DNA of 35,802 nt, taken from IMG/VR virus record IMGVR_UViG_2711768064_000002. One strand, given 5' to 3'. The stretch comes from a virus (taxonomy: Duplodnaviria > Heunggongvirae > Uroviricota > Caudoviricetes). The translations under genes and the position numbers were made by a program. The notes below the pieces were generated by a model. That model had not been told where the DNA came from. It was given only the letters and a program-made list of their open reading frames with translations, and did not search any database. Positions 1-35,802 of the stretch are shown piece by piece (position 1 is the first letter of the stretch; each line of letters opens with the position of its first letter).

Positions 1-318
1 ATGAAAAAGATAGCTGCTATATCATTAATTAGTATTTTTATTGTGTCTGGTTGTGCTGTGCATAATGATGAGACAAGTATCGGTAAATTTGGTCTTGCAT
101 ATAAAAGTAATATTCAGCGTAAACTCGATAACCAATACTACACCGAAGCCGAAGCTTCTTTAGCCAGGGGCAGAATATCTGGTGCAGAAAATATAGTAAA
201 AAATGATGCAGCCCATTTCTGTGTTACTCAGGGCAAAAAAATGCAGATAGTTGACCTGAAGACAGAAGGTGCAGGATTACATGGCGTCGCTCGTCTGACA
301 TTCAAATGTGGAGAGTGA
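1..318 (+). CDS. yegR: Small putative lipoprotein, 105 aa (host flank)
   Basis: ORF with N-terminal signal-like MKKIAAISLISIFIVSGCA, Cys at a lipobox-like position; sits outside attL. Symbol from recalled E. coli K-12 gene order yegQ-cyaR-...-yegR, not verified. Confidence 0.55.
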   Translation: MKKIAAISLISIFIVSGCAVHNDETSIGKFGLAYKSNIQRKLDNQYYTEAEASLARGRISGAENIVKNDAAHFCVTQGKKMQIVDLKTEGAGLHGVARLTFKCGE

Positions 319-6847: not shown

Positions 6848-7419
6848 ATCTCCTCCTGTAAGCAGAGGGCAATTTCCGCCGATATATGCGCTTCTAAGGC
6901 GGAGTTACTATTTAGCGAAGTCTTGCCCTGAAATAATGCTCTGTTTAAACGCAAAGTGATCTGGCATATCACCGAACAGAGAGCCTGAACAACACAACAT
7001 ATAGTATGTCGTTGTTTCTGGTTGCATTTTATGTTGTGTAATCCTGGTTTTGCATCAAGGATGTTTGAGCTTTTTTTGATATAGCTCAAAGTAAAAAGCA
7101 GAGACTACGGATGATAAGGTATTGAAAGCAATGTAAATTTTTTAAAGTTATTGGCGGCTAAAAAATGCACGGTTTCAATATGGTGGACTTAAATAAGCAA
7201 TTAAAAAAGTCATAAATATCACTAAAATCATGGTGTTACGTTTTTTTTGTGGGAGCTGCGGTGACGCTTAAGTTGATTTGTCATTAAATAAGCCGTGCAT
7301 GCAACAAGTGAATGTTTTTGCATGCGTCGGGGATGCCCGTTCCGGCTGCTTGCGGTCAGAGCTGGTGCGGATCCATAGTATCTATGCAACTGCATTAAAA
7401 CCGCCACATGAAGCGGGCG

Positions 7420-7438
7420 GGCGAGGCGGGGAAAGCAC
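7420..7438. other. cos cohesive-end site (GGCGAGGCGGGGAAAGCAC)
   Basis: Exact match to the 19-nt P2/186 cohesive-end sequence as I recall it; sits between A and Q as expected in the prophage. Confidence 0.8.
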
Positions 7439-7592
7439 TGCGCGCAAAATGTTCTTGAAATATTTGTGACATAAGCTAAGACACAAAATGATTGAAGGGC
7501 AGAGCAAATCCTACAGTCCTATGCTATTGTCTCATGTAATGCAGATAAGTTGAAAATTATCTTAAAATATAAGAGTAAAGACATTAAAAGGA

Positions 7593-9860
7593 TTGGTTAT
7601 GAATAATAACTCTAAGTTATTAAGCTCTATCTCGGTTGAATCTGATTTCGAGAACCTTATAAAACTATATGCAAATGAGTTATTTGGTGGTGAAACATAT
7701 CTGATCGGTGGTCCTTGGGATAATGGAAAGGATTTGGTAATAAAAAAGGGGAATAGAGAGTTAAAGCAAGCTGTACAAATATCTATTCAAGAGAAAAATA
7801 TTGAAAGTAAGATTGCTCAAGATATTAAAAAAGTGGCGAAATTGGTTGATGATCATTATTACCCGCCTGTATTATATTTTTTTTGGAGTCATTCAATATC
7901 TGAGCATTTATTGGATAAGATAAGAACAAATGCTCTTAAGGAAGATTTGATTAGATTGGAGTTTTATGATGCCAAACGGATCTCTCAAGATATTACAGAT
8001 AAATACCCAGGGTTATTGAATTACTTAATAAAAGATATACATAAGATAAGTTCTAATACTGAAGATGCAATTAACTTGCAACAAAGAGCATTTTATGAAT
8101 ATTTATTGTTAAGCAAAGATAGTGCTAATTTAAAAAATGAAATAATAAAAGCTAGTATTATGTCTAATTTATATGATGGCGGGAAGTCTGCTGATGATAT
8201 TCTAGAGAATCTAAAAGGTGTTAGTCTTACAAAACGTAGTTTACAGGGTAGACTGCAAAACCTAATTCATCAAAATAAAATTAGATTGAATGATGGTATA
8301 TATAGCCTGTCACCAGAGGAAATTAAAAAGCTTGAGAATATAAATCTCCGTGAAATTGTCAGAAAAGAAGAGTTGTTATCAGTAATAAATAATGAGTTGC
8401 CCAGAAATACAAGTAAGAATCTGGCTGTTCAAGTTGTTGATTTAATAATAAAGGCTTATGAAGAATCAATAAATGTCCAATTAACAGAAAGTAAATTTGA
8501 GCCTCCAAAATTACAGATATTCAAAACTATAGTACATAATTTAAAGGTGTTGATACGGCAGGAATATGATTTGGATGATGAGTCTTCGGATGCTTTAGCA
8601 AAAAAGCTAATGGAGTTGGCTGGTCAAAATGACTATTTATCCGAGCATTGCTCTGCTAAATTATGTGTGAATCTTTTAAGTGATCGGAAATTAGAGAAAT
8701 ATATTGAAAATAAAAATTTTTATATCTACTTTGATGCGCCTGTTCTTATTCCATATTTGATAACTCTTATGTTTGGAGATTTTGAGCTTTTTGATAAGTC
8801 GATTAAAAATATAAATTTACTGAGAGAGTGCATAAATCCCCTCAAAAATAAACATCTGAGAGTTTCTAATGAACATTTTGAAGAAACTGCAAGGCACTAC
8901 TCTGAAGCTGAAAAATTAAGTCAGTTTGTAACTGAAGATTTAATTAGTCAACTTGGTGAGTCGAAAAATGTATACTTTAATGTTTATATGCGGTGGAAAA
9001 ACAAACAGCCTAAACGTACAGATTTTTACGATTTTACTTATGCTTTTCTAGGGTTGGATAAAGATGATATTTATGCGGGGTATAAGCATGACACATTTGC
9101 GCAATGCATTCATAATTTACTAGCGTCAGCAAATATTGTTGTAATTGATAATAAAGACTCGGTGTCACAAGACTTTGTATTTAAAATAAAGCAAAAACTT
9201 AAAAGGGATTTGAATTCTTCACGTCCCGTTCGAGCCATAGAAAATGATGTTATATGTGCTGCAACTTTGAGTGATGAAACCCTACATCTTGATTCCAATG
9301 GTTACTTCAGTACTCCCATGCTAATAACACTTGATAGATCTCAATATCTATTGAGAAGCATAGTAAGAAATGAAAGGAGACATGCTGAATGGTTGGTTTA
9401 TACCCCTCAAAGAGCAATTGAACGTCTTTCCTTGGTGGGTTTAAAAATATCATCGGAATCGTTAAAGGATGGTGTTTTAGCAACCATATCAGAAGAATAT
9501 TTCTTTAAAGAAAGTTCCAGTAGTTTGATTGATACTTTGGCTATTATCATTGGAGATAATCAAGCAAGGCAAGGAGATGTTATTAGGCTTGCATCGCTTT
9601 TAAAAAGAAAGGTCAATGAGGAATCTATTGAGAATTCAGAAATTGATATTGAACACTATAATAACATTAGTTATGTGCTTCTTTTCATTCATCGTGAATT
9701 TAAATCTGAATTTTCAAATATAATAAAAATTTTTGCTGAGGATAGTAGGCGAGATAAACTGGTTGAAGTTTTGTTATCCACTATTCAAGGAGTTTTTGAT
9801 GAGAGTAAAAAGGAAATCTTGCGCTCAAATATAGGACGGTTGTTGGCTGAAATGGGATGA
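7593..9860 (+). CDS. Cargo protein of unknown function, 755 aa, AT-rich; possible N-terminal PD-(D/E)xK/Mrr-like nuclease fold
   Basis: Long uninterrupted ORF with Lys/Asn/Ile-rich composition unlike the GC-rich phage backbone. Motif weakly similar to Mrr-type nuclease cores: DNGKDLVIKKGNRELKQAVQISIQEK. Possible Rx4H at RNERRH. Confidence 0.85.
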   Translation: MVMNNNSKLLSSISVESDFENLIKLYANELFGGETYLIGGPWDNGKDLVIKKGNRELKQAVQISIQEKNIESKIAQDIKKVAKLVDDHYYPPVLYFFWSHSISEHLLDKIRTNALKEDLIRLEFYDAKRISQDITDKYPGLLNYLIKDIHKISSNTEDAINLQQRAFYEYLLLSKDSANLKNEIIKASIMSNLYDGGKSADDILENLKGVSLTKRSLQGRLQNLIHQNKIRLNDGIYSLSPEEIKKLENINLREIVRKEELLSVINNELPRNTSKNLAVQVVDLIIKAYEESINVQLTESKFEPPKLQIFKTIVHNLKVLIRQEYDLDDESSDALAKKLMELAGQNDYLSEHCSAKLCVNLLSDRKLEKYIENKNFYIYFDAPVLIPYLITLMFGDFELFDKSIKNINLLRECINPLKNKHLRVSNEHFEETARHYSEAEKLSQFVTEDLISQLGESKNVYFNVYMRWKNKQPKRTDFYDFTYAFLGLDKDDIYAGYKHDTFAQCIHNLLASANIVVIDNKDSVSQDFVFKIKQKLKRDLNSSRPVRAIENDVICAATLSDETLHLDSNGYFSTPMLITLDRSQYLLRSIVRNERRHAEWLVYTPQRAIERLSLVGLKISSESLKDGVLATISEEYFFKESSSSLIDTLAIIIGDNQARQGDVIRLASLLKRKVNEESIENSEIDIEHYNNISYVLLFIHREFKSEFSNIIKIFAEDSRRDKLVEVLLSTIQGVFDESKKEILRSNIGRLLAEMG

Positions 9861-9875
9861 TTTCTTGGTTATTGA

Positions 9876-9910
9876 ACGGCACTATGGTCGTTGCTTATAG
9901 TGCCGTTTTA
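9876..9910. terminator. Stem-loop terminator between cargo gene and Q 3' end
   Basis: aacggcactat..atagtgccgtt 11-bp stem followed by tttt; lies between convergent genes. Confidence 0.65.
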
Positions 9911-9951
9911 AGGTGTCGTGCCATTATGAATGGCATATCCGAGTTTATATA

Positions 9952-10986
9952 TTAGGTATCGCAAGTATCTAGTGAGTAGTTTTTAAAGCGGATGACCTCC
10001 TGACCGAGCCAGCCGTTTATCTCGCGGATCCTGTCCTGTAACGGGATAAGCTCATTGCGGACAAAGACCTTTGCCACTTTCTCAATATCGCCCAGTGACC
10101 CGACGTTCTCCGGCTTGCCGCCCATCAACTGAAAGGGGATGCGGTGCGCGTCCAGTAGGTCAGCGGCGCTGGCTTTTTTGATATTAAAAAAATCGTCCTT
10201 CGTTGCGACTTCACTGAGCGGGATAATTTTAATGCCGTCGGCTTTCCCCTGTGGGGCATAGAGAAACAGATTTTTAAAGTTGTTGCGGCCTTTCGACTTC
10301 ACCATGTTTTCGCGGAGCATTTCGATATCGTTGCGATCCTGCACGGCATCAGTGACGTACATGATGTATCCGGCATGTGCGCCGTTTTCGTAATACTTGC
10401 GGCGGAACAGCGTGGCCGACTCATTCAGCCAGGCAGAGTTAAGGGCGCTGAGATATTCCGGCAGGCCGTACAACTCCTGATTAATATCCGGCTCCAGCAG
10501 GTGAAACACGGAGCCGGGCGCGAAGGCTGTCGGTTCGTTGAAGGACGGCACCCACCAGTAAACATCCTCTTCCACCCCACGGCGGGTATATTTTGCCGGT
10601 GAGGTTTCCAGTCTGATGACCTTACCGGTGGTGCTGTAACGCTTTTCCAGAAACGCATTACCGAACACCAGAAAATCCAGCACAAAGCGGCTGAAATCCT
10701 GTTGTGAAAGCCACGGATGCGGGATAAATGTCGAGGCCAGAATATTACGTTTGACGTAAATCGGTGAGCTGTGATGTACGGCAGCACGCAGGCTTTTTGC
10801 CAGACCGGTAAAGCTGACCGGTGGCTCATACCATCTGCCGTTACTGATGCACTCGACGTAATCCAGAATGTCACGGCGGTCGAGTACCGGCACCGGCTCA
10901 CCAAAGGTGAATGCCTCCATTTTCGGGGCGCTGGCGGTGATTGTTTTTGCCGCAGGTTGCGGTGTTTTCCCTTTTTTCTTGCTCAT
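9952..10986 (-). CDS. Q: Portal protein Q, 344 aa
   Basis: Size identical to P2 Q; leftward late operon next to cos; start overlaps P stop. Confidence 0.92.
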   Translation of the reverse strand: MSKKKGKTPQPAAKTITASAPKMEAFTFGEPVPVLDRRDILDYVECISNGRWYEPPVSFTGLAKSLRAAVHHSSPIYVKRNILASTFIPHPWLSQQDFSRFVLDFLVFGNAFLEKRYSTTGKVIRLETSPAKYTRRGVEEDVYWWVPSFNEPTAFAPGSVFHLLEPDINQELYGLPEYLSALNSAWLNESATLFRRKYYENGAHAGYIMYVTDAVQDRNDIEMLRENMVKSKGRNNFKNLFLYAPQGKADGIKIIPLSEVATKDDFFNIKKASAADLLDAHRIPFQLMGGKPENVGSLGDIEKVAKVFVRNELIPLQDRIREINGWLGQEVIRFKNYSLDTCDT

Positions 10987-16480: not shown

Positions 16481-16762
16481 ATGACAGCAGAAGAAAAAAG
16501 CGTCCTGTCGCTTTTCATGATTGGGGTGCTGATTGTTGTCGGCAAGGTGCTTGCCGGTGGTGAACCCATCACCCCGCGTCTGTTTATCGGGCGCATGTTG
16601 CTCGGTGGTTTTGTCTCGATGGTTGCCGGTGTTGTTCTGGTGCAGTTTCCTGACCTGTCACTGCCTGCGGTGTGCGGCATCGGCTCCATGCTGGGTATCG
16701 CCGGTTATCAGGTGATTGAGATTGCCATTCAGCGCCGCTTTAAGGGCAGGGGGAAACAGTAA
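16481..16762 (+). CDS. Y: Holin Y, 93 aa
   Basis: Small protein with hydrophobic helices (LSLFMIGVLIVVGKVLAGG..., MLLGGFVSMVAGVVLV) immediately upstream of the endolysin. Confidence 0.88.
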   Translation: MTAEEKSVLSLFMIGVLIVVGKVLAGGEPITPRLFIGRMLLGGFVSMVAGVVLVQFPDLSLPAVCGIGSMLGIAGYQVIEIAIQRRFKGRGKQ

Positions 16763-17259
16763 TGCCGGTAATTAACACGCATCAGAATATCGCCGCCTTT
16801 CTCGACATGCTGGCCGTGTCCGAAGGGACGGCGAACCATCCGCTGACGAAAAACCGGGGCTATGACGTGATAGTCACCGGACTGGATGGAAAGCCGGAAA
16901 TCTTCACCGACTACAGTGACCACCCGTTCGCACATGGCCGACCGGCGAAGGTGTTTAACCGTCGCGGTGAAAAATCCACGGCCTCCGGTCGCTATCAGCA
17001 GCTTTACCTGTTCTGGCCGCATTACCGCAAACAGCTTGCCCTGCCGGATTTCAGTCCGTTGTCACAGGACAGACTCGCCATTCAGTTGATCCGCGAACGC
17101 GGTGCGCTGGATGACATCCGGGCGGGACGCATTGAGCGCGCCATTTCACGCTGTCGCAATATCTGGGCGTCCCTGCCGGGTGCCGGTTACGGTCAGCGTG
17201 AGCATTCACTGGAAAAACTGGTCACCGTCTGGCGTACCGCCGGCGGCGTACCGGCTTAA
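16762..17259 (+). CDS. K: Endolysin K (lysozyme), 165 aa
   Basis: Position after the holin; size matches P2 K. Confidence 0.9.
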   Translation: MPVINTHQNIAAFLDMLAVSEGTANHPLTKNRGYDVIVTGLDGKPEIFTDYSDHPFAHGRPAKVFNRRGEKSTASGRYQQLYLFWPHYRKQLALPDFSPLSQDRLAIQLIRERGALDDIRAGRIERAISRCRNIWASLPGAGYGQREHSLEKLVTVWRTAGGVPA

Positions 17260-17273
17260 ACGGAGTAAATACC

Positions 17274-17699
17274 ATGAAGAAATTATCCCTTTCACTGATG
17301 CTGAACGTGTCGCTGGCGCTGATGCTGGCACTGTCCCTGATTTACCCGCAGAGCGTGGCCGTCAGTTTTGTCGCCGCCTGGGCGATTCTGGTGACGGTTA
17401 TCTGTGTGGTTGCCGGTGGTGTCGGCGTGTATGCCACTGAGTATGTGCTGGAACGCTACGGGCGGGAGCTGCCGCCGGAATCGCTGGCCGTGAAGATTGT
17501 CACGTCGCTGTTTTTGCAGCCGGTGCCGTGGCGCAGACGGGCGGCGGCTCTGGTAGTGATGGTGGCGACGTTTATCTCGCTGGTCGCTGCCGGGTGGATT
17601 TTTACTGCGCTGATTTATCTCGTGGCATCGGTGTTTTTCCGGCTGATACGTACGGCCTGCCGTCAGCGTTTTGAGGGGCGGGAACCATGTCAAAGCTGA
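17274..17699 (+). CDS. lysA: Lysis timing protein LysA (membrane), 141 aa
   Basis: Multi-TM hydrophobic 141-aa protein after K, as in P2. Confidence 0.85.
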   Translation: MKKLSLSLMLNVSLALMLALSLIYPQSVAVSFVAAWAILVTVICVVAGGVGVYATEYVLERYGRELPPESLAVKIVTSLFLQPVPWRRRAAALVVMVATFISLVAAGWIFTALIYLVASVFFRLIRTACRQRFEGREPCQS

Positions 17700-18112
17700 T
17701 GATTGTGCTGGTTGTGTTGTTATCACTGGCGGTGGCCGGTCTGTTTCTGGTGAAACACAAAAATGCCAGCCTGCGCGCCTTGCTGGACAGGGCGAACAAC
17801 GTCGCCAGCGGTCAGCAGACGACCATCGCCATGCTGAAAAACCAGCTTCATGTTGCCCTTACCAGGGCAGACAAAAACGAGCTGGCGCAGGTGGCACTGC
17901 GTCAGGAACTGGAGAACGCCGCGAAACGTGAAGCACAGCGCGAGAAAACCATCACGAGGTTACTTAATGAAAACGAGGATTTTCGCCGCTGGTATGGCGC
18001 TGACCTGCCTGATGCTGTGCGCCGGTTGCACCAGCGTCCGGCCTGCACTGACGCCAGTGATTGTCGCCAACGCCTGCCCGAAAGTGAGCCTTTGCCCGAT
18101 GCCGGGCAGTGA
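17687..18112 (+). CDS. lysB: LysB (Rz-like spanin component), 141 aa
   Basis: N-terminal TM helix then coiled-coil-like region; P2 lysB size. Confidence 0.85.
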   Translation: MSKLMIVLVVLLSLAVAGLFLVKHKNASLRALLDRANNVASGQQTTIAMLKNQLHVALTRADKNELAQVALRQELENAAKREAQREKTITRLLNENEDFRRWYGADLPDAVRRLHQRPACTDASDCRQRLPESEPLPDAGQ

Positions 18113-18257
18113 CCCGCAGACGAACGGCGATTTAAGTGCCGATATCCGGCAGCTTGAGAACGCGCTGGCACGCTGTGCCAGCCAGGTAAAAATGATTAAA
18201 CACTGTCAGGACGAAAACGATGCTCAAACCCGACAGCCTGCGCAGGGCGCTGACTGA
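17967..18257 (+). CDS. lysC: LysC (Rz1-like lipoprotein in +1 frame within lysB), 96 aa
   Basis: Embedded frame begins MKTRIFAAGMALTCLMLCAGC (lipobox LCAGC); 96 aa as in P2 lysC. Confidence 0.75.
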   Translation: MKTRIFAAGMALTCLMLCAGCTSVRPALTPVIVANACPKVSLCPMPGSDPQTNGDLSADIRQLENALARCASQVKMIKHCQDENDAQTRQPAQGAD

Positions 18258-18687
18258 TGCCGTCACGGTGCTGAAAACCAGTCCCGATATGCTGCGGATA
18301 TTCGTGGATAACGGGAGTATTGCCTCCACACTGGCGGCGTCGTTGTCATTCGAAAAGCGTTACACGCTCAATGTCATTGTGACCGACTTTACCGGTGATT
18401 TTGACCTGCTCATCGTGCCGGTGCTGGCGTGGCTGCGGGAAAATCAGCCCGACATCATGACCACCGACGAAGGTCAGAAAAAGGGCTTCACGTTTTATGC
18501 AGACATCAACAATGACAGCAGCTTTGATATCAGCATCAGCCTGATGCTGACCGAGCGCACGCTGGTCAGTGAGGTGGACGGCGCACTGCATGTGAAGAAT
18601 ATCCCGGAACCCCCGCCGCCGGAGCCGGTCACCCGCCCGATGGAGCTGTATATCAATGGCGAACTGGTGAGCAAGTGGGATGAATGA
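18220..18687 (+). CDS. R: Tail completion protein R, 155 aa
   Basis: Size and position as P2 R. Confidence 0.88.
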   Translation: MLKPDSLRRALTDAVTVLKTSPDMLRIFVDNGSIASTLAASLSFEKRYTLNVIVTDFTGDFDLLIVPVLAWLRENQPDIMTTDEGQKKGFTFYADINNDSSFDISISLMLTERTLVSEVDGALHVKNIPEPPPPEPVTRPMELYINGELVSKWDE

Positions 18688-19132: not shown

Positions 19133-19207
19133 CTTTAATCATCTGAGAATATAAGATAGAAATCAATTGATTAGCATAATTTATTTTGAATTTTAATGTT
19201 AATAAAT

Positions 19208-19232
19208 AAAAGGCCAGTTATTGGCCTTTTAT
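19208..19232. terminator. Bidirectional rho-independent terminator
   Basis: aaaaggccagttattggcctttt: stem ggcca/tggcc flanked by A- and T-runs, between convergent S and the antisense cargo gene. Confidence 0.7.
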
Positions 19233-19234
19233 CA

Positions 19235-20308
19235 TTACTTTCCATTTTTTAATGAATTGATTAACGATGCTATTTGCTCAATGCCATCAAATGTAGATGG
19301 TATCTTATCATCGGATAGCATGATGTTTGAAAATACTACGTCTTCGAATTTTGAAAGCGCTTCCGGATTGTTTTTCCTTATCTCTGAGGAATAGTCGCTA
19401 TAACTCTGAATGAACTGACAAAGGCTCTTTCTGAGTTCTATTTGCATAATCTGAGTTCGTAACGATATATGATTTAGCAGTACAACTCTAAAGTAATACA
19501 TGAAAATCAATGTAACTGATGCAAAAGGTAGTGCTGACATAAAATATGTGGCAGCATTTGTCGTTTCGAGAGTTGGTAATTTATGCATTCCATAGTATAT
19601 CAGCGGGGAGGGAATGATTATAGCCAAGATGATAAGAATTATTCTTGATAGCATGATTTCACTTTCTTTCTTTTTGCCAAGTGAATTAAAGCCTTCAAAC
19701 AATCCAACAAAATTAAATGCGACCTCATACCCTTTTAATGACTCTTTAATTGACTCTATTTTGGCATGTTGCTCCTTTAAGAAGGAGTCGCACTTTTCGA
19801 AAAATTGACGCCCTTCGTTTAAACTATCAATGTATTTTTTATATGTGTCAACATTGCTGGAGCTTAAAACTTCTTTAACCATTGCTAATGGCAGTTCTCT
19901 AAGAGAAAAGTCTATCTGTGCTCTGCTCCGCTCATCGAATTCATTATAGTTATACAGAGCAAAATCCTTGATGGTTCTTAGTGGTGAAAAGTGAGACTCT
20001 ATTTCCGGAGAGAGAATGCTTGGTTCAATGATAAATCTAAAAAAGCAAGTAAATATAAGGTTGATGCTGTTGTTATCTTCTCCCTTCTCTCTTAAGAAAC
20101 TTTTAAAGGTGTCGCCAATCATAGCAATGTTGTACTGGGATTTTTTGTCCCAATCTTCAGGGTTTTCGGAAATGAAGTTTATTGCTTGAGCAATTATTTT
20201 GTTTCTGTTTGATTCAAAGTTTGTGCTGGGAGTCAGCGTGTTCAAAAAGACCAGATAATCTTTGAACAATTCTTTCATTGTTTCTGACGAGAAAAAGTAA
20301 GTACTCAT
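19235..20308 (-). CDS. AT-rich cargo membrane protein with two predicted TM helices, about 357 aa; ORF opens at 20404 (389 aa)
   Basis: Soluble N-terminal region then hydrophobic helices IMLSRIILIILAIIIPSPLIYYGM and FMSALPFASVTLIFMYYFRVVLL. Start at MSTYFF (20308) preferred because the 20404 start overlaps the V start. Confidence 0.8.
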   Translation of the reverse strand: MSTYFFSSETMKELFKDYLVFLNTLTPSTNFESNRNKIIAQAINFISENPEDWDKKSQYNIAMIGDTFKSFLREKGEDNNSINLIFTCFFRFIIEPSILSPEIESHFSPLRTIKDFALYNYNEFDERSRAQIDFSLRELPLAMVKEVLSSSNVDTYKKYIDSLNEGRQFFEKCDSFLKEQHAKIESIKESLKGYEVAFNFVGLFEGFNSLGKKKESEIMLSRIILIILAIIIPSPLIYYGMHKLPTLETTNAATYFMSALPFASVTLIFMYYFRVVLLNHISLRTQIMQIELRKSLCQFIQSYSDYSSEIRKNNPEALSKFEDVVFSNIMLSDDKIPSTFDGIEQIASLINSLKNGK

Positions 20309-20394
20309 AATGGATTTTGTTGTCCCTTGTTGTTCTGTGCACCAGAAATCATGGTGTGATTTACTTCGAGATAGTACAGAATCATTATTATCGA
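20309..20394. promoter_or_regulatory. Late promoter region upstream of V (PV); likely also holds the cargo gene promoter
   Basis: Intergenic between divergent cargo gene and V; TGT-rich element ttgttgtcccttgttgttctgtgcacc. Inferred from P2 organisation. Confidence 0.45.
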
Positions 20395-21024
20395 ATGAAT
20401 GCACAATACAATGAAATTCTTCGCTTTATACGCAATATGATTCGCACTGGCATTATCGTCGAAACCGACCTTAATGCCGGTCGCTGCCGTGTGCAGACCG
20501 GCGGCATGTGCACCGACTGGCTTCAGTGGCTGACCCATCGCGCCGGGCGTTCGCGCACATGGTGGGCACCTTCCGTGGGGGAACAGGTGCTGATTCTGGC
20601 CGTGGGTGGTGAACTCGACACGGCGTTCGTTCTGCCGGGGATTTATTCCGGCGATAACCCCGCGCCGTCTGCGTCGGCGGATGCCCTGCATATCCGTTTC
20701 CCTGACGGGGCGGTGATTGAATATGAACCCGAAACCAGTGCACTCATGGTAAGCGGAATTAAAACGGCCAGCGTGACGGCTTCTGATTCTGTTACTGCCA
20801 CGGTGCCGGTGGTCATGGTGAAAGCATCAACCCGCATCACCCTGGACACACCGGAGGTGGTCTGCACCAACAGGCTGATTACCGGCACGCTGGAAGTGCA
20901 GAAGGGCGGGACGATGCGCGGCAACATTGAACACACCGGCGGTGAACTCTCATCAAACGGTAAGGTACTGCATACCCATAAACACCCCGGCGACAGCGGC
21001 GGCACAACCGGGAGTCCTCTATGA
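20395..21024 (+). CDS. V: Baseplate spike/assembly protein V, about 209 aa; ORF opens at 20317
   Basis: NMIRTGIIVETDLNAGRCRVQTGGMCTDWLQWL recognised as P2 V. Confidence 0.9.
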   Translation: MNAQYNEILRFIRNMIRTGIIVETDLNAGRCRVQTGGMCTDWLQWLTHRAGRSRTWWAPSVGEQVLILAVGGELDTAFVLPGIYSGDNPAPSASADALHIRFPDGAVIEYEPETSALMVSGIKTASVTASDSVTATVPVVMVKASTRITLDTPEVVCTNRLITGTLEVQKGGTMRGNIEHTGGELSSNGKVLHTHKHPGDSGGTTGSPL

Positions 21025-22814: not shown

Positions 22815-24860
22815 ATGAGCACAAAATTCAAAACCGTTATCACCACTGCCGGTGCAGCAAAGCTGGCAGCGGCAACCGCACCGGGAGGGCGGAAGGTCAA
22901 CATTACCACGATGGCCGTCGGGGATGGCGGTGGTAAATTGCCTGTCCCGGATGCCGGACAGACCGGGCTTATCCACGAAGTCTGGCGACATGCGCTGAAC
23001 AAAATCAGCCAGGACAAACGAAACAGTAATTATATTATCGCAGAGCTGGTTATTCCGCCGGAGGTGGGCGGCTTCTGGATGCGTGAGCTTGGCCTGTACG
23101 ATGATGCGGGAACGTTAATTGCCGTGGCGAACATGGCCGAAAGTTATAAGCCAGCTCTTGCCGAAGGCTCAGGGCGTTCGCAGACCTGTCGCATGGTCAT
23201 CATCGTCAGCAGTGTGGCCTCAGTGGAGCTGACCATTGACACCACAACGGTGATGGCGACGCAGGATTACGTTGATGACAAAATTGCAGAGCATGAACAG
23301 TCACGACGTCACCCGGACGCCTCGCTGACCGCAAAAGGTTTTACTCAGTTAAGCAATGCGACCAACAGCACGTCTGAAACACTGGCCGCAACGCCGAAAG
23401 CGGTTAAGGCCGCATATGACCTTGCTAACGAGAAATATACCGCACAGGACGCTACCACAGCGCGAAAAGGTCTTGTCCAGCTAAGTAGTGCGACCAACAG
23501 CATGTCTGAAACGCTCGCCGCAACACCAAAAGCCGTTAAGACGGTAATGGATGAAACGAACAAGAAAGCGCCATTAAACAGCCCTGCACTGACCGGAACG
23601 CCAACGACGCCAACTGCGCGACAGGGAACGAATAATACTCAGATCGCAAACACGGCTTTCGTTATGGCCGCGATTGCCGCCCTTGTAGACTCGTCGCCTG
23701 ACGCACTGAATACGCTGAACGAGCTGGCGGCGGCGCTGGGCAATGACCCGAATTTTGCTACCACCATGACTAATGCGCTTGCGGGTAAGCAACCGAAAGA
23801 TGCCACTTTGACGGCGCTGGCGGGGCTTGCTACTGCGGCAGACAGGTTTCCGTATTTTACGGGGAATGATGTTGCCAGCCTGGCGACCCTGACAAAAGTC
23901 GGGCGGGATATTCTGGCTAAATCGACCGTTGCCGCCGTTATCGAATATCTCGGTTTACAGGAAACGGTAAACAGGGCCGGGAACGCCGTGCAAAAAAATG
24001 GCGATACCTTGTCCGGCGGGCTTACTTTTGAAAACGACTCAATCCTTGCCTGGATTCGAAATACTGACTGGGCAAAGATTGGATTTAAAAATGATGCCGA
24101 CAGCGATACTGATTCATATATGTGGTTTGAAACAGGTGACAACGGCAATGAATATTTCAAATGGAGAAGTCGCCAGAGCACCACAACAAAAGACCTGATG
24201 AATCTTAAATGGGATGCTCTGTATGTTCTTGTTAAAGCCCTTTTCAGTAGTGAAGTAAAAATATCTACAGTCAATGCGCTGAGGATATTTAATTCATCTT
24301 TTGGTGCTATTTTTCGCCGTTCTGAAGAAAACCTGTATATCATTCCTACACGAGAAAATGAGGGTGAAAATGGAGATATTGGGCCATTAAGGCCATTCGG
24401 CATCAACTTAAGAACAGGAGTTGTGTCTGTTGGTAATGGTGCCAGGATTGATGGCGGGCTGGCACTTGGCACGAATAACGCGTTGGGTGGGAACTCTATT
24501 GTTCTTGGTGATAACGACACCGGATTTAAACAAAATGGCGATGGTAATCTGGATGTTTATGCTAATAACGTCCATGTTATGCGCTTTGTTTCCGGAAGCA
24601 TTCAAAGTAATAAGACCATAAATATTACGGGGCGTGTTAATCCCTCGGATTACGGTAACTTTGATTCCCGCTATGTGAGAGATATCAGACTTGGCACACG
24701 TGTTGTCCAGACCATGCAGAAAGGGGTGATGTATGAGAAAGCAGGGCACGTAATTACCGGGCTTGGTATTGTCGGTGAAGTCGATGGTGATGACCCCGCA
24801 GTATTCAGGCCAATACAAAAATACATCAATGGCACATGGTATAACGTCGCACAGGTGTAA
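22815..24860 (+). CDS. H: Tail fiber protein H, 681 aa
   Basis: Conserved N-terminus, internal repeats, AT-richer C-terminal region; position between I and G. Confidence 0.9.
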   Translation: MSTKFKTVITTAGAAKLAAATAPGGRKVNITTMAVGDGGGKLPVPDAGQTGLIHEVWRHALNKISQDKRNSNYIIAELVIPPEVGGFWMRELGLYDDAGTLIAVANMAESYKPALAEGSGRSQTCRMVIIVSSVASVELTIDTTTVMATQDYVDDKIAEHEQSRRHPDASLTAKGFTQLSNATNSTSETLAATPKAVKAAYDLANEKYTAQDATTARKGLVQLSSATNSMSETLAATPKAVKTVMDETNKKAPLNSPALTGTPTTPTARQGTNNTQIANTAFVMAAIAALVDSSPDALNTLNELAAALGNDPNFATTMTNALAGKQPKDATLTALAGLATAADRFPYFTGNDVASLATLTKVGRDILAKSTVAAVIEYLGLQETVNRAGNAVQKNGDTLSGGLTFENDSILAWIRNTDWAKIGFKNDADSDTDSYMWFETGDNGNEYFKWRSRQSTTTKDLMNLKWDALYVLVKALFSSEVKISTVNALRIFNSSFGAIFRRSEENLYIIPTRENEGENGDIGPLRPFGINLRTGVVSVGNGARIDGGLALGTNNALGGNSIVLGDNDTGFKQNGDGNLDVYANNVHVMRFVSGSIQSNKTINITGRVNPSDYGNFDSRYVRDIRLGTRVVQTMQKGVMYEKAGHVITGLGIVGEVDGDDPAVFRPIQKYINGTWYNVAQV

Positions 24861-24863
24861 TTT

Positions 24864-25391
24864 ATGCAGCATTTAAAAAATATTACTGCGGGTAATCCAA
24901 AAACTGTTGCCCAATATCAACTGACAAAAAATTTTGATGTTATCTGGTTATGGTCCGAAGAGGGAAAAAACTGGTATGAGGAAGTAAGTAATTTTCAGGA
25001 AGACACGATAAAGATTGTTTACGACGAGAATAATATAATTTTCGGCATCACCAGAGATGCTTCAACGCTTAACCCTGAAGGTTTCAGCGTTGTCGAGGTT
25101 CCTGATATTACCTCCAACCGACGTGCTGATGACTCAGGTAAATGGATGTTTAAGGATGGTGCCGTGATTAAGCGGATTTATACGGCAGATGAACAGGAGC
25201 AACAGGCAGAATCACAAAAGGCAGCTTTACTTTCCGAAGCTGAATCCGTGATTTTGCCGCTGGAACGCGCTGTCAGGCTGAATATGGCGACGGATGAGGA
25301 ACGCAGCCGACTGGAAGCATGGGAACGCTACAGCGTTCTGGTCAGTCGTGTGGATCCTGCAAATCCCGAATGGCCGGAAATGCCGCAATAA
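24864..25391 (+). CDS. G: Tail fiber assembly chaperone G, 175 aa
   Basis: Follows H; size as P2 G. Confidence 0.88.
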
Positions 25392-25668
25392 GTTGTATGA
25401 TCTCTGGTGTGAGCTTACATATCTATAGCACAGAGTAAAGCCTAATCTGACAGTCCGCTATGTGCCAATAGCAGACATCCACACAATTATGTAAAATAGG
25501 CTAGTGAGTCAGCATTCATGTAGTTCAGATCATCTATAGCTGAAATCACGATCGCTTAACAGTGATTCACTCATAACTGCTAGCGAGCAATGTTCTTGTT
25601 TGAACCTCAAGTTGAAACCACAAAATCGAAAGGTTAAATAATCGATTATCCAAATAGAAGGCAATTCA

Positions 25669-27108
25669 ATGGGAAATCACGATTTTATTAAATATATTAT
25701 ATTATTTGGCTTGTCTGGGATAATGTTGGCTATGCTAGTGCTCTTTATTTCCTCTGTAGCATATTATTTTTTCACCCATAATAAAGGAGTTCTTCAGTAT
25801 ATAATTAAAACTATTTCCATAGGCCTTGTAACTATTCCAGTCGCAATAATACTAATCGTTGCACTCGTCCATTATGTTGTCTGGCAAAAAGGGATTTCAA
25901 CGGCATGGCGTTTTATATTCCACTCGACTAAAACAACAACCGTGAATGATATTGCTAATGCTGAATCAGAAGATGTTATTGTTCACCTTGTTCATGGAAC
26001 ATTCGAGACGAATGCATCTTGGACACAACCTGAGTCAAAAATGTGCAAATCAATTAACTCAAGGAATCCCAATATTGGTATATCTCGATTTAAATGGGAT
26101 GGCAAAAACTCTGCATCCTCTCGTAAACAAGCGGCATATCAATTAGGAATGCATATTGATAACTCTCCTGCAAAATACAATTATATTATTGCACATAGCC
26201 ATGGGGCAGCTATTGTAAGAGAAATGTCTTATTTACGAAGTGATATTGCAAAAAAAATTCAAGGCGTATGTCTTTTGTCACCACCGTTCATCTTTCGACG
26301 TAGGATAAAAAGAACGTCAGGTGCTTTAATTAATCTTATTGATATTAGCGGAACTTTGGCCATTCAATTGTTACTTGCAGTATTTTTTGTACCTTTGAAT
26401 CTATATAATATTAATTATGCAGCAGTAATTTTTTTTGTTTCAATATTTGCAGAAATTATAATCTCCAAAAAATATAAAAAAGAATTTTTGCAGGAAGTTG
26501 AGAGTGGCGAGCACTGTGAAGCGGTTGATTTTAGGAATGTTGAAATTTATCACGCAATTGGTGATGAAGCCGATTCAGGCCTAAGATTTGTAAGTTCACT
26601 TCACGAAGGATGTTTTGCAATTCTTTCCCAGCTAAAAAAAGCTCAAGTAAGTCATAAAAAGCTAACACATTGGTCAGCAGTTTTAAGCTACCTATTTTAT
26701 ATTTCCATGAGTGTATTAATATGGTTCTTCTATCCTGAAGAAAAATCATGGATTATAGTATTATTAGTAAGCTTTGTATTAACTTCTATTTCTCACATTT
26801 GGCAAAGGTTGAAACCATCAAAGGATGTTCCTCATGTTTTACTTATTGCAGCAATACCAGTTGCGATTTTTTCATTTTGGTTGGCTGTAGCTAAGGCCAT
26901 AGCTTATGGAGATTTGCGATTAATATTTTGCCCGGAAGTTTTTATTGCATCATCTGAAACTCCAGCTGGAGATCATAAAGTTATTAAATTTGCTCCACAG
27001 AATGATGGTATATTAATACACTCAACACACTCGCATCCGGAGGCTATAATTAATGTTTCTGAATGGTTATATTGCTCTGAGAATAAAAGGGTAAATGGTG
27101 AATCATAG
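25669..27108 (+). CDS. AT-rich cargo polytopic membrane protein with serine-hydrolase-like motifs, 479 aa
   Basis: N-terminal TM helices, then VIVHLVHGTFE (HG oxyanion-like) and IIAHSHGAAIV (GxSxG-like elbow), further TM segments, C-terminal ILIHSTHSH. Occupies the Z/fun position between G and FI. Confidence 0.85.
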   Translation: MGNHDFIKYIILFGLSGIMLAMLVLFISSVAYYFFTHNKGVLQYIIKTISIGLVTIPVAIILIVALVHYVVWQKGISTAWRFIFHSTKTTTVNDIANAESEDVIVHLVHGTFETNASWTQPESKMCKSINSRNPNIGISRFKWDGKNSASSRKQAAYQLGMHIDNSPAKYNYIIAHSHGAAIVREMSYLRSDIAKKIQGVCLLSPPFIFRRRIKRTSGALINLIDISGTLAIQLLLAVFFVPLNLYNINYAAVIFFVSIFAEIIISKKYKKEFLQEVESGEHCEAVDFRNVEIYHAIGDEADSGLRFVSSLHEGCFAILSQLKKAQVSHKKLTHWSAVLSYLFYISMSVLIWFFYPEEKSWIIVLLVSFVLTSISHIWQRLKPSKDVPHVLLIAAIPVAIFSFWLAVAKAIAYGDLRLIFCPEVFIASSETPAGDHKVIKFAPQNDGILIHSTHSHPEAIINVSEWLYCSENKRVNGES

Positions 27109-27441
27109 ATTAATATAACCACCATAAATTAATTTGTAATATACTTCCCTGCTAAATTCGCAGGGGAGTATAAAAATATACTAGCTCAGTGGAGTCTTGT
27201 GCTGAGTTAGTACATGTTAACAAGATATTTATTCACCACTAAATAATTAGCTAGAACAATAAGAATAATTTTGGGCAGTAAAGACAGGATGTAAACTACA
27301 CTTATTCCAGTATGTTGGTTATCGTAGTTATATATGATGAGCTCTAAAGTCCGCTTCTCGCTCAAAGCAGACTGTCAGATTTGATAGCGTTTTGGCTATG
27401 TAAATTGTCAGTCGGGAAATAAGTGAGTACAAATCATGACA

Positions 27442-34268: not shown

Positions 34269-34296
34269 TAAAAAATAAGCCCGTGTAAGGGAGATT
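34269..34296. repeat. attR core (taaaaaataAgcccgtgtaagggagatt)
   Basis: Direct repeat of attL; coincides with the 3' end of the sRNA gene. Confidence 0.85.
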
Positions 34297-34356
34297 ACAC
34301 AGGCTAAGGAGGTGGTTCCTGGTACAGCTAGCATTTTATGGGTTATGTTTTTCAGC
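34270..34356 (-). ncRNA. cyaR: CyaR (RyeE) small regulatory RNA, 87 nt
   Basis: Minus strand reads gctgaaaaacataacccataaaatgctagctgtaccaggaaccacctccttagcctgtgtaatctcccttacacgggcttatttttt, matching CyaR as I recall it, including the terminator hairpin and U-tail. Confidence 0.8.
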
Positions 34357-34440
34357 GAAACGGATGATAACCTTAATAAATGCAGCTGTATGTGATCGGT
34401 TTCTAAGAATTTTCCATCCGGGAAAAATAATCGAAATTAA

Positions 34441-35802
34441 TCACTTACCGTGGGGATTACGCGTGGTTTCCCCGGAGAAATTACGCATCAGCAGCGCGTA
34501 ATTGAGCTCAAGATCCTGCGGGACCGGGAGCCACACAGTATAACCATCGCCTGGTGCTATCGGCATAGCTTCGCCTTTGGCGTTTTCCATGTGCTCAAGG
34601 GTAAAATTAATGTTGCCTTGCGGCGTCATCAGCTCAAGGCTGTCGCCAACGGAGAATTTATTTTTCACCGCTACCGCCGCGAGGTCCCCCTTGCGCTCAC
34701 CGGTAAACTCACCAACAAACTGCTGGCGGTCAGAAACTGAATAACCGTATTCGTAGTTCTGATAATCGTCGTGAGTATGACGACGCAGGAAACCTTCGGT
34801 ATAGCCACGATGCGCCAGACCTTCCAGAGTTTCCAGCAGGCTGGTATCGAACGGTTTTCCCGCAGCGGCGTCATCGATAGCTTTGCGGTAAACCTGTGCG
34901 GTGCGTGCACAATAGTAGAAAGATTTGGTACGACCTTCGATTTTCAGCGAATGCACGCCCATTTTGGTCAGGCGTTCTACATGGGCGATGGCGCGCAGAT
35001 CTTTCGAGTTCATGATGTAAGTGCCGTGCTCATCTTCAAACGCGGTCATATACTCGCCCGGACGCTGGGCCTCTTCGATCATAAACACTTTGTCGGTTGG
35101 TGCGCCGATACCCAGCGTCGGCTCAACATTTTGCACCGGAATCGGCTCGTACTTGTGTACGATGTTGCCAACATCATCTTCTTTCCCTTCCTGGACGTTG
35201 TACTCCCAGCGGCAGGCGTTGGTGCAGGTGCCCTGGTTCGGGTCGCGCTTGTTGATATAGCCAGAGAGCAGGCAGCGACCGGAGTAGGCCATGCACAGCG
35301 CGCCGTGAACGAAGATCTCGATCTCCATATCCGGCACCTGATTGCGGATCTCTTCAATCTCTTCCAGCGACAGCTCGCGAGAGAGGATCACGCGGGTCAG
35401 GCCCATTTGCTGCCAGAATTTCACCGTCGCCCAGTTCACGGCGTTAGCCTGCACCGAAAGGTGGATCGGCATTTCAGGGAAGTGCTCACGCACCAGCATA
35501 ATCAGCCCTGGATCGGACATAATCAGCGCATCCGGCCCCATTTCCACCACCGGTTTCAGGTCACGGATAAAGGTTTTCAGCTTGGCGTTGTGCGGTGCAA
35601 TGTTGACCACGACATAAAACTTTTTCCCCAGCGCGTGGGCTTCATTGATGCCGAGCTGAAGATTTTCGTGGTTGAATTCGTTGTTGCGCACACGCAGGGA
35701 ATAACGCGGCTGGCCCGCATAAACAGCATCTGCGCCATAAGCGAAAGCGTAACGCATATTTTTCAGCGTTCCCGCCGGGGAAAGGAGTTCCGGTTTAAAC
35801 AT
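34441..35802 (-). CDS. yegQ: Peptidase U32-family protein (YegQ/TrhP-like), 453 aa
   Basis: Full-length ORF starting at the window edge (MFKPELLSPAGTLKNMRYAFAYGADAVYAGQPRYSLR); GC-normal host-like composition; recalled as neighbour of cyaR in E. coli. Confidence 0.75.
   Translation of the reverse strand: MFKPELLSPAGTLKNMRYAFAYGADAVYAGQPRYSLRVRNNEFNHENLQLGINEAHALGKKFYVVVNIAPHNAKLKTFIRDLKPVVEMGPDALIMSDPGLIMLVREHFPEMPIHLSVQANAVNWATVKFWQQMGLTRVILSRELSLEEIEEIRNQVPDMEIEIFVHGALCMAYSGRCLLSGYINKRDPNQGTCTNACRWEYNVQEGKEDDVGNIVHKYEPIPVQNVEPTLGIGAPTDKVFMIEEAQRPGEYMTAFEDEHGTYIMNSKDLRAIAHVERLTKMGVHSLKIEGRTKSFYYCARTAQVYRKAIDDAAAGKPFDTSLLETLEGLAHRGYTEGFLRRHTHDDYQNYEYGYSVSDRQQFVGEFTGERKGDLAAVAVKNKFSVGDSLELMTPQGNINFTLEHMENAKGEAMPIAPGDGYTVWLPVPQDLELNYALLMRNFSGETTRNPHGK

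Follow-up and report, generated by a model that had tools for sequence, protein, structure and literature searches.

Phage spanin genes occur in embedded, overlapped and separated architectures, and phage P2 is the named example of the overlapped type (Kongari et al. 2018, PMC6139136). P2 LysB and LysC have been tested experimentally as an overlapped two-component spanin, and spanin complexes are described as fusing the inner and outer membranes once the peptidoglycan has been degraded, which completes lysis (Kongari et al. 2018, PMC6139136). For P2, the lysC start has been described as lying within lysB, in the +1 frame, and the stop as falling inside R in a different frame (Lynch et al. 2010, PMC3091744, after Markov et al. 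2004). In phage lambda, by contrast, Rz1 (46186-46368, 60 aa) lies wholly within Rz (45966-46427).

We describe here a lysB/lysC pair in a 35,802-nt stretch of viral DNA, referred to below as the window, which is a P2-like prophage. We put at about 96% the probability that this region is the two-component spanin of the prophage.

The P2-like prophage and its lysis cassette

The backbone of the window has approximately 97-98% nucleotide identity to phage P2 (AF063097); the alignment consists of five long blocks plus a short one of 48 bp at the cos site. Each end of the prophage is marked by one copy of an 18-bp direct repeat, GCCCGTGTAAGGGAGATT (486-503 and 34279-34296). The copy on the right falls within the CyaR/RyeE sRNA gene (34273-34358, minus strand; Rfam RF00112, 100.7 bits), and the integration site therefore overlaps cyaR at one end. 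On the right flank is a U32 peptidase gene (34441-35802, minus strand), and the prophage is also flanked by an ORF for a small host lipoprotein (window 1-315), whose lipobox, IVSGC, is canonical. In the tail-fibre H/G region, 24239-24654 (H 3' end/G) has no alignment to P2, and 24654-25476 is 86% identical compared with 97-98% elsewhere; this divergence at 24239-25476 is the usual host-range mosaicism.

The neighbourhood of lysB and lysC corresponds to the P2 late O operon. Directly 5' of lysB, and in the same order as in P2, are the Y holin (16481-16762, plus strand; PF04550 Phage_holin_3_2, E 2.6e-42), the K endolysin (16762-17259, plus) and lysA (17274-17699, plus), the latter two with PHROG matches in the lysis category. 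Downstream are the tail-completion genes R (18220-18687, plus; PF06891 P2_Phage_GpR, E 4.4e-45) and S. The order Y-K-lysA-lysB/lysC-R-S is that of P2 (GenBank AF063097 / NC_001895), as are the protein lengths of 141 and 96 aa, and the annotated layout of lysB, lysC and R in the P2 record is identical.

Both proteins belong to curated families. LysB matches the equivalog TIGR03495 phage_LysB at 172.9 bits (cutoff 92.75) and phrog_89 'Rz-like spanin' with an E value of 4.5e-60. LysC matches the NCBIfam equivalog NF038368 'P2_Rz1' at 125.8 bits (cutoff 27) over profile positions 2-85 of 85, Pfam PF23793 LysC at 60.3 bits (cutoff 27), and phrog_456, likewise a PHROGs 'Rz-like spanin' family, with an E value of 1.2e-31. 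The initial annotation had read the two genes as a spanin pair and had proposed a comparison with P2 lysC; the matches to NF038368, PF23793 and TIGR03495, together with the P2 identity, make them P2 lysB/lysC, and the comparison returned a LysC that is 92% identical and a P2 record with the same arrangement.

That identity is without gaps (92% for LysC and 96% for LysB), and the mean nucleotide identity of lysB/lysC to P2 is 98% over 651 nt. The +1 register, the Shine-Dalgarno sequence, the LCAGC lipobox, the stop within R and the cysteine pattern are all the same as in P2. LysB differs by 5 substitutions and LysC by 8 (K2, R4, M10, A11, V24, R25, L28 and A34), the latter all among residues 2-34 and confined to the signal peptide and the Pro-rich linker. 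In the LysC signal peptide, 4 of 20 residues differ from those of P2 and the lipobox is identical. No substitution in either protein falls in the lipobox, the cysteines or the C-terminal helix.

Of 5426 complete E. coli genomes, 1609 (about 30%) carry the same DNA, and all eight records among the matches listed (97.3-97.7% identity) have both lysB and lysC annotated. Within the Peduoviridae, the same overlapped +1 arrangement beside R recurs in the PsP3-like SW9 and Midge, in the Fels-2-like RE-2010, in YenM_31.17 and LPM4, and in Burkholderia KS14 and KL3, and these LysB/LysC pairs have an invariant Cys pattern and an NGDL motif in common.

Frame, start and conservation of lysC

The gene lysB (17687-18112, plus strand, ATG at 17687), which is on the ORF list, encodes a 141-aa i-spanin (Rz-like). 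The gene lysC (17967-18257, plus strand, ATG at 17967) encodes a 96-aa o-spanin, a predicted Rz1-like outer-membrane lipoprotein precursor, with the translation MKTRIFAAGMALTCLMLCAGCTSVRPALTPVIVANACPKVSLCPMPGSDPQTNGDLSADIRQLENALARCASQVKMIKHCQDENDAQTRQPAQGAD and the N-terminal sequence MKTRIFAAGMALTCLMLCAGCTS. Its frame is +1 relative to lysB (17967 - 17687 = 280), and it starts at 0.66 of the length of lysB. A stretch of 146 nt (17967-18112, plus) is dual-coding, the C-terminal third of lysB doubling as lysC residues 1-49. From the lysB stop, lysC continues for another 145 nt and overlaps the start of R by 38 nt (18220-18257, plus). A Shine-Dalgarno sequence, GAGGT, lies inside lysB at 17956-17960 (plus), 6-7 nt upstream of the ATG; its GAGG is kept in 61 of 66 haplotypes, with GAGA in its place in the remaining 5, and the supplement of Kongari et al. 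2018 (PMC6139136) gives P2 LysC the same Shine-Dalgarno sequence.

Most of what the initial annotation had said about the gene structure held on re-computation: every coordinate that it gave, among them the lysC start at 17967, was correct, as were its placement of lysC in the 3' half of lysB in a different frame and its statement that the gene passes the lysB stop and overlaps R, and the ribosome-binding site on which it had made the reading depend is present. Its word 'Embedded' has to be replaced. Because lysC starts inside lysB in another frame and runs past the lysB stop, the arrangement is overlapped and of the P2 type, and it differs from that of lambda in extending beyond lysB into R.

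It could be argued that the +1 ORF is open by chance, in coding DNA rich in GC, and is not expressed, and that the genes here are lysB and R only. Other long non-genic ORFs do occur on both strands, among them an 89-aa antisense ORF (17902-18171, minus strand) opposite lysB/lysC, which is open in 63 of 69 haplotypes, matches no PHROG family and is most likely a passive by-product of coding constraint on the sense strand. The population data speak against chance for lysC itself. The 79 related viral contigs compared comprise 66 distinct haplotypes, and every one of the 66 has an intact lysC in which the start, the stop and the CLMLCAGCTS motif are unchanged. It is intact also where the lysB stop is changed; lysB is altered in 5 of the 66, where it reads through the usual stop (18110-18112) or has a premature stop at codon 127. 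In the 107 nt between the lysB stop and R, where there is no other gene, the lysC frame has 11 synonymous and 9 non-synonymous variants against an expectation of 20% synonymous (p=5.5e-4), whereas the other two frames have no synonymous enrichment over the same 107 nt (p=0.63-0.80). Additionally, variant density is 16.1 per 100 nt in the stretch shared by lysB and lysC compared with 27.1 in the part that is lysB only.

The frame is also kept over longer distances. The LysB-seeded search of viral contigs returned only loci of 95-98% identity, and the divergent relatives were taken from individual GenBank phage records. Six phages with a LysB that is 36-64% identical, namely Klebsiella Kp4882-2, Salmonella SW9, Escherichia phage Midge, Aeromonas LPM4, Yersinia YenM_31.17 and Salmonella RE-2010, each have a +1 ORF of 96-104 codons with a lipoprotein signal in the same place. 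The ORF, the signal peptide and the invariant cysteines are retained in relatives with 33-43% LysC identity. Considering also that the curated family matches are far over their cutoffs and that genetics on P2 lysC has already been published, we regard a chance frame as wholly implausible and lysC as a gene under selection in its own frame.

An upstream in-frame ATG at 17850, which would give a 135-aa lysC product, was considered and rejected. The added segment has 1 synonymous and 20 non-synonymous variants, contains stops in 23 of 69 haplotypes and would give an N-terminus without a signal peptide. In divergent relatives, in-frame stops occur 1-29 codons 5' of the lysC start. As the frame shows no sign of coding 5' of ATG 17967, the start of lysC is placed at 17967 and not at ATG 17850.

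The predicted LysC lipoprotein, its partner and the hairpin within lysC

The predicted LysC signal peptide (residues 1-20; 17967-18026, plus strand) consists of the n-region MKTR, the uncharged hydrophobic core IFAAGMALTCLML and the lipobox L-C-A-G. It is followed by Cys21 (codon TGC, 18027-18029, plus), the predicted lipid-modified first residue of mature LysC. Cys21 is invariant in an alignment of 38 LysC sequences that reaches down to 33% identity, and is therefore the predicted lipidation site. Met1, Gly9, Leu15, Cys37, Cys43 and Pro50 are likewise invariant, as are Gly54-Asp55-Leu56, Ala66, Cys70, Cys80 and Gln81. Cys18 is variable, being at least 90% conserved in the P2 clade and Ser or Leu in relatives.

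The initial annotation had claimed both a lipoprotein signal and a lipobox. A signal peptide is predicted ahead of an invariant Cys21; the lipobox is non-canonical, and L-C-A-G-C matched neither [LVIMFA][ASTVICGL][GAS]C nor a PS00013-type pattern. Strict patterns miss it because position -3 is a cysteine (Cys18). The supplement of Kongari et al. 2018 (PMC6139136) gives P2 LysC, which has the identical lipobox, a 20-residue signal sequence with lipobox 'LCAG', LipoP cleavage sites at 20 and 17, and the entry 'No hit by Prosite', with a mature protein of 76 aa and 4 periplasmic cysteines. The three most distant relatives aligned, namely Aeromonas LPM4, Yersinia YenM_31.17 and Salmonella RE-2010, carry the canonical L-S-G-C lipobox at the same column in place of the C-A-G-C found here. 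Because Cys21 is invariant, because distant relatives have LSGC and because the same exception is documented for P2, the pattern miss does not refute the lipoprotein reading.

Residue +2 of the mature protein is Thr22 and not Asp, and Thr occupies this position in at least 90% of the aligned homologues. Under the Lol sorting rule of E. coli, lipoproteins with a residue other than Asp at +2 go to the outer membrane. Judged from this residue, LysC is predicted to be sorted there. Mature LysC has 76 aa, of which 9% are Pro, and four periplasmic cysteines (Cys37, Cys43, Cys70 and Cys80), all of them invariant; with the two cysteines of LysB, Cys120 and Cys126, they are available for putative intermolecular disulfides. 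In an AlphaFold model built with 35 homologues, the signal peptide forms a helix (residues 8-19), followed by an extended Pro-rich linker (21-49) and a further helix (56-88), whose core residues 61-80 have pLDDT values of 92-94.

LysB has an N-terminal transmembrane segment at approximately residues 4-22, where the Kyte-Doolittle mean peaks at 3.12 (19 residues, centre at residue 13). Its AlphaFold model, made from a single sequence, is one helix over residues 3-115 with a mean pLDDT of 69.5. The model and the hydrophobic N-terminus fit a type II protein of the inner membrane whose periplasmic domain is helical, and the LysC model likewise fits the topology expected of it. PDB sequence searches with LysB and with a LysC profile gave nothing meaningful.

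Neither protein resembles its lambda counterpart in sequence: BLASTP found no significant similarity between LysC and Rz1 (E 0.59) or between LysB and Rz (E 0.35). The lambda mechanism would therefore be extended to LysB/LysC on the strength of analogy and of published complementation rather than homology, and the relation of LysB/LysC to Rz/Rz1 is one of functional analogy, as drawn from the spanin literature, and not of family membership. The predicted structures differ as well. The periplasmic domain of lambda Rz1 is unstructured, with 10 Pro in 40 mature residues (Kongari 2018, PMC6139136), whereas mature LysC, with its 76 aa and 9% Pro, has a confidently predicted C-terminal helix.

On the precedent of P2 and lambda, the pair would work as follows. 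The Y holin would release the K endolysin, which would degrade the peptidoglycan. LysB would sit in the inner membrane by its N-terminal transmembrane helix, with a long helical periplasmic domain beyond it. LysC would be translated in the +1 frame, using a separate ribosome-binding site that lies within lysB, exported by its lipoprotein signal peptide, cut before Cys21, lipid-modified, and sorted to the outer membrane because its +2 residue is Thr and not Asp. The periplasmic parts of LysB and LysC would then bind each other into a periplasm-spanning bridge that passes through the cell wall, and membrane fusion, which would breach the outer membrane as lysis ends, would follow by analogy with the spanin literature on the same two phages.

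A hairpin, GCTGGCAC-GCT-GTGCCAGC, lies inside lysC at 18164-18182 (plus strand) and corresponds to P2 record 8399-8417, annotated as 'putative transcription attenuator, O operon'. The lysC region might accordingly be mainly regulatory, with the hairpin attenuating read-through into R and S and the spanin role secondary. The hairpin is identical in sequence to that of P2, has a predicted 8-bp stem, and sits in a gene whose product the P2 record describes under 'regulation of lysis'. By its title, a report by Markov et al. 2004 also connects lysC alleles with growth on a host mutated in the RNA polymerase gene rpoC, a connection which, as far as a title goes, would favour a regulatory role. The structure itself argues otherwise: its fold is unexceptional (z = -1.15; an equal or better fold arises in 24 of 200 shuffles), there is no T-run 3' of the stem, a terminator scan did not report it, and related haplotypes carry variants within the stem at 18170, 18180 and 18181. 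LysC is moreover strongly conserved at the protein level, and an attenuator would leave a spanin role possible. We therefore consider a mainly regulatory region improbable and retain the reading of LysB/LysC as a spanin.

More speculatively, Cys18 and the two LipoP-predicted sites (17|18 and 20|21) might give rise to two alternative LysC lipoprotein species, or Cys18 might modulate, and thereby time, processing by signal peptidase II. Independently of this, spanin translation might be coupled to read-through into the tail genes by the hairpin at 18164-18182. These ideas are mentioned as long shots.

Variable loci and the annotation of lysC

Three loci of the prophage carry non-P2 DNA. The AT-rich insert at 7438-9964, between the cos site (7391-7438) and the portal gene Q, occupies the variable locus that holds tin/old in P2. 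Comparison with Pfam, NCBIfam, PHROGs, PADLOC and GenBank phages gave no match to its 755-aa ORF (7593-9860, plus strand), which may be uncharacterised prophage cargo or an anti-phage gene. Between S and V, window 19137-20431 replaces P2 orf30, also a variable locus, with a 389-aa ORF (19235-20404, minus strand). This ORF matched only phrog_9373, a family of unknown function (E 9e-134). Hypothetical proteins that Yersinia P2-like phages encode at the corresponding position share 37-38% identity with it, and ORFs in Klebsiella phage records of about 110 kb share 26-28%. Between G and FI, window 25476-27350 replaces P2 fun(Z) and contains a 479-aa ORF (25669-27108, plus strand). Several long hydrophobic stretches are visible in it by eye, a match to Ser_hydrolase stays below threshold (E 0.0014, 19 bits against a cutoff of 22), and PADLOC, NCBIfam, PHROG and phage-genome comparisons gave no match.

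Public records treat lysC unevenly. Many NCBI LysC entries are 81 aa long and begin at Met16 (MLCAGC...), some are 87 aa, and versions of 52-57 aa also exist. For SW9 and Midge, only a 52-aa C-terminal LysC fragment is annotated, and in LPM4, YenM_31.17 and RE-2010 lysC is unannotated though a full +1 ORF with a lipobox is present.

The frequency of these shorter entries among NCBI cluster representatives raises the alternative that lysC is real and starts internally, at Met16 (81 aa) or at Met10 (87 aa), as it is annotated in many RefSeq/PGAP records. In an 81-aa product, the lipidation cysteine would be preceded by 5 residues only, which leaves no n-region or hydrophobic core, and so no functional export signal. 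Met1, on the other hand, is invariant in the 38 sequences (encoded by GTG, the lysC start codon, in Salmonella RE-2010) and has a Shine-Dalgarno sequence 5' of it, GAGG in most cases, whereas position 10 varies and, in the Aeromonas, Yersinia and Fels-2-like relatives, Leu takes the place of Met16. The in-frame stops that relatives carry a mere 1-4 codons 5' of Met1 bound the start there, and the 96-aa form is the one used for P2 by GenBank and by the table of Kongari et al. 2018 (PMC6139136). An internal start is thus very unlikely, and the correct lysC call is the 96-aa frame from 17967.

In summary, the lysB/lysC pair of this prophage has already been described, is routinely annotated and is a near-identical copy of a textbook gene pair. 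Its discovery value is accordingly small, the pair being already named by standard annotation pipelines, and the three uncharacterised cargo ORFs at the variable loci are the more unusual and the more interesting part of the prophage. The practical value of the lysB/lysC analysis lies in its use as an annotation check, as overlapped o-spanin genes are often missed or truncated at their start.
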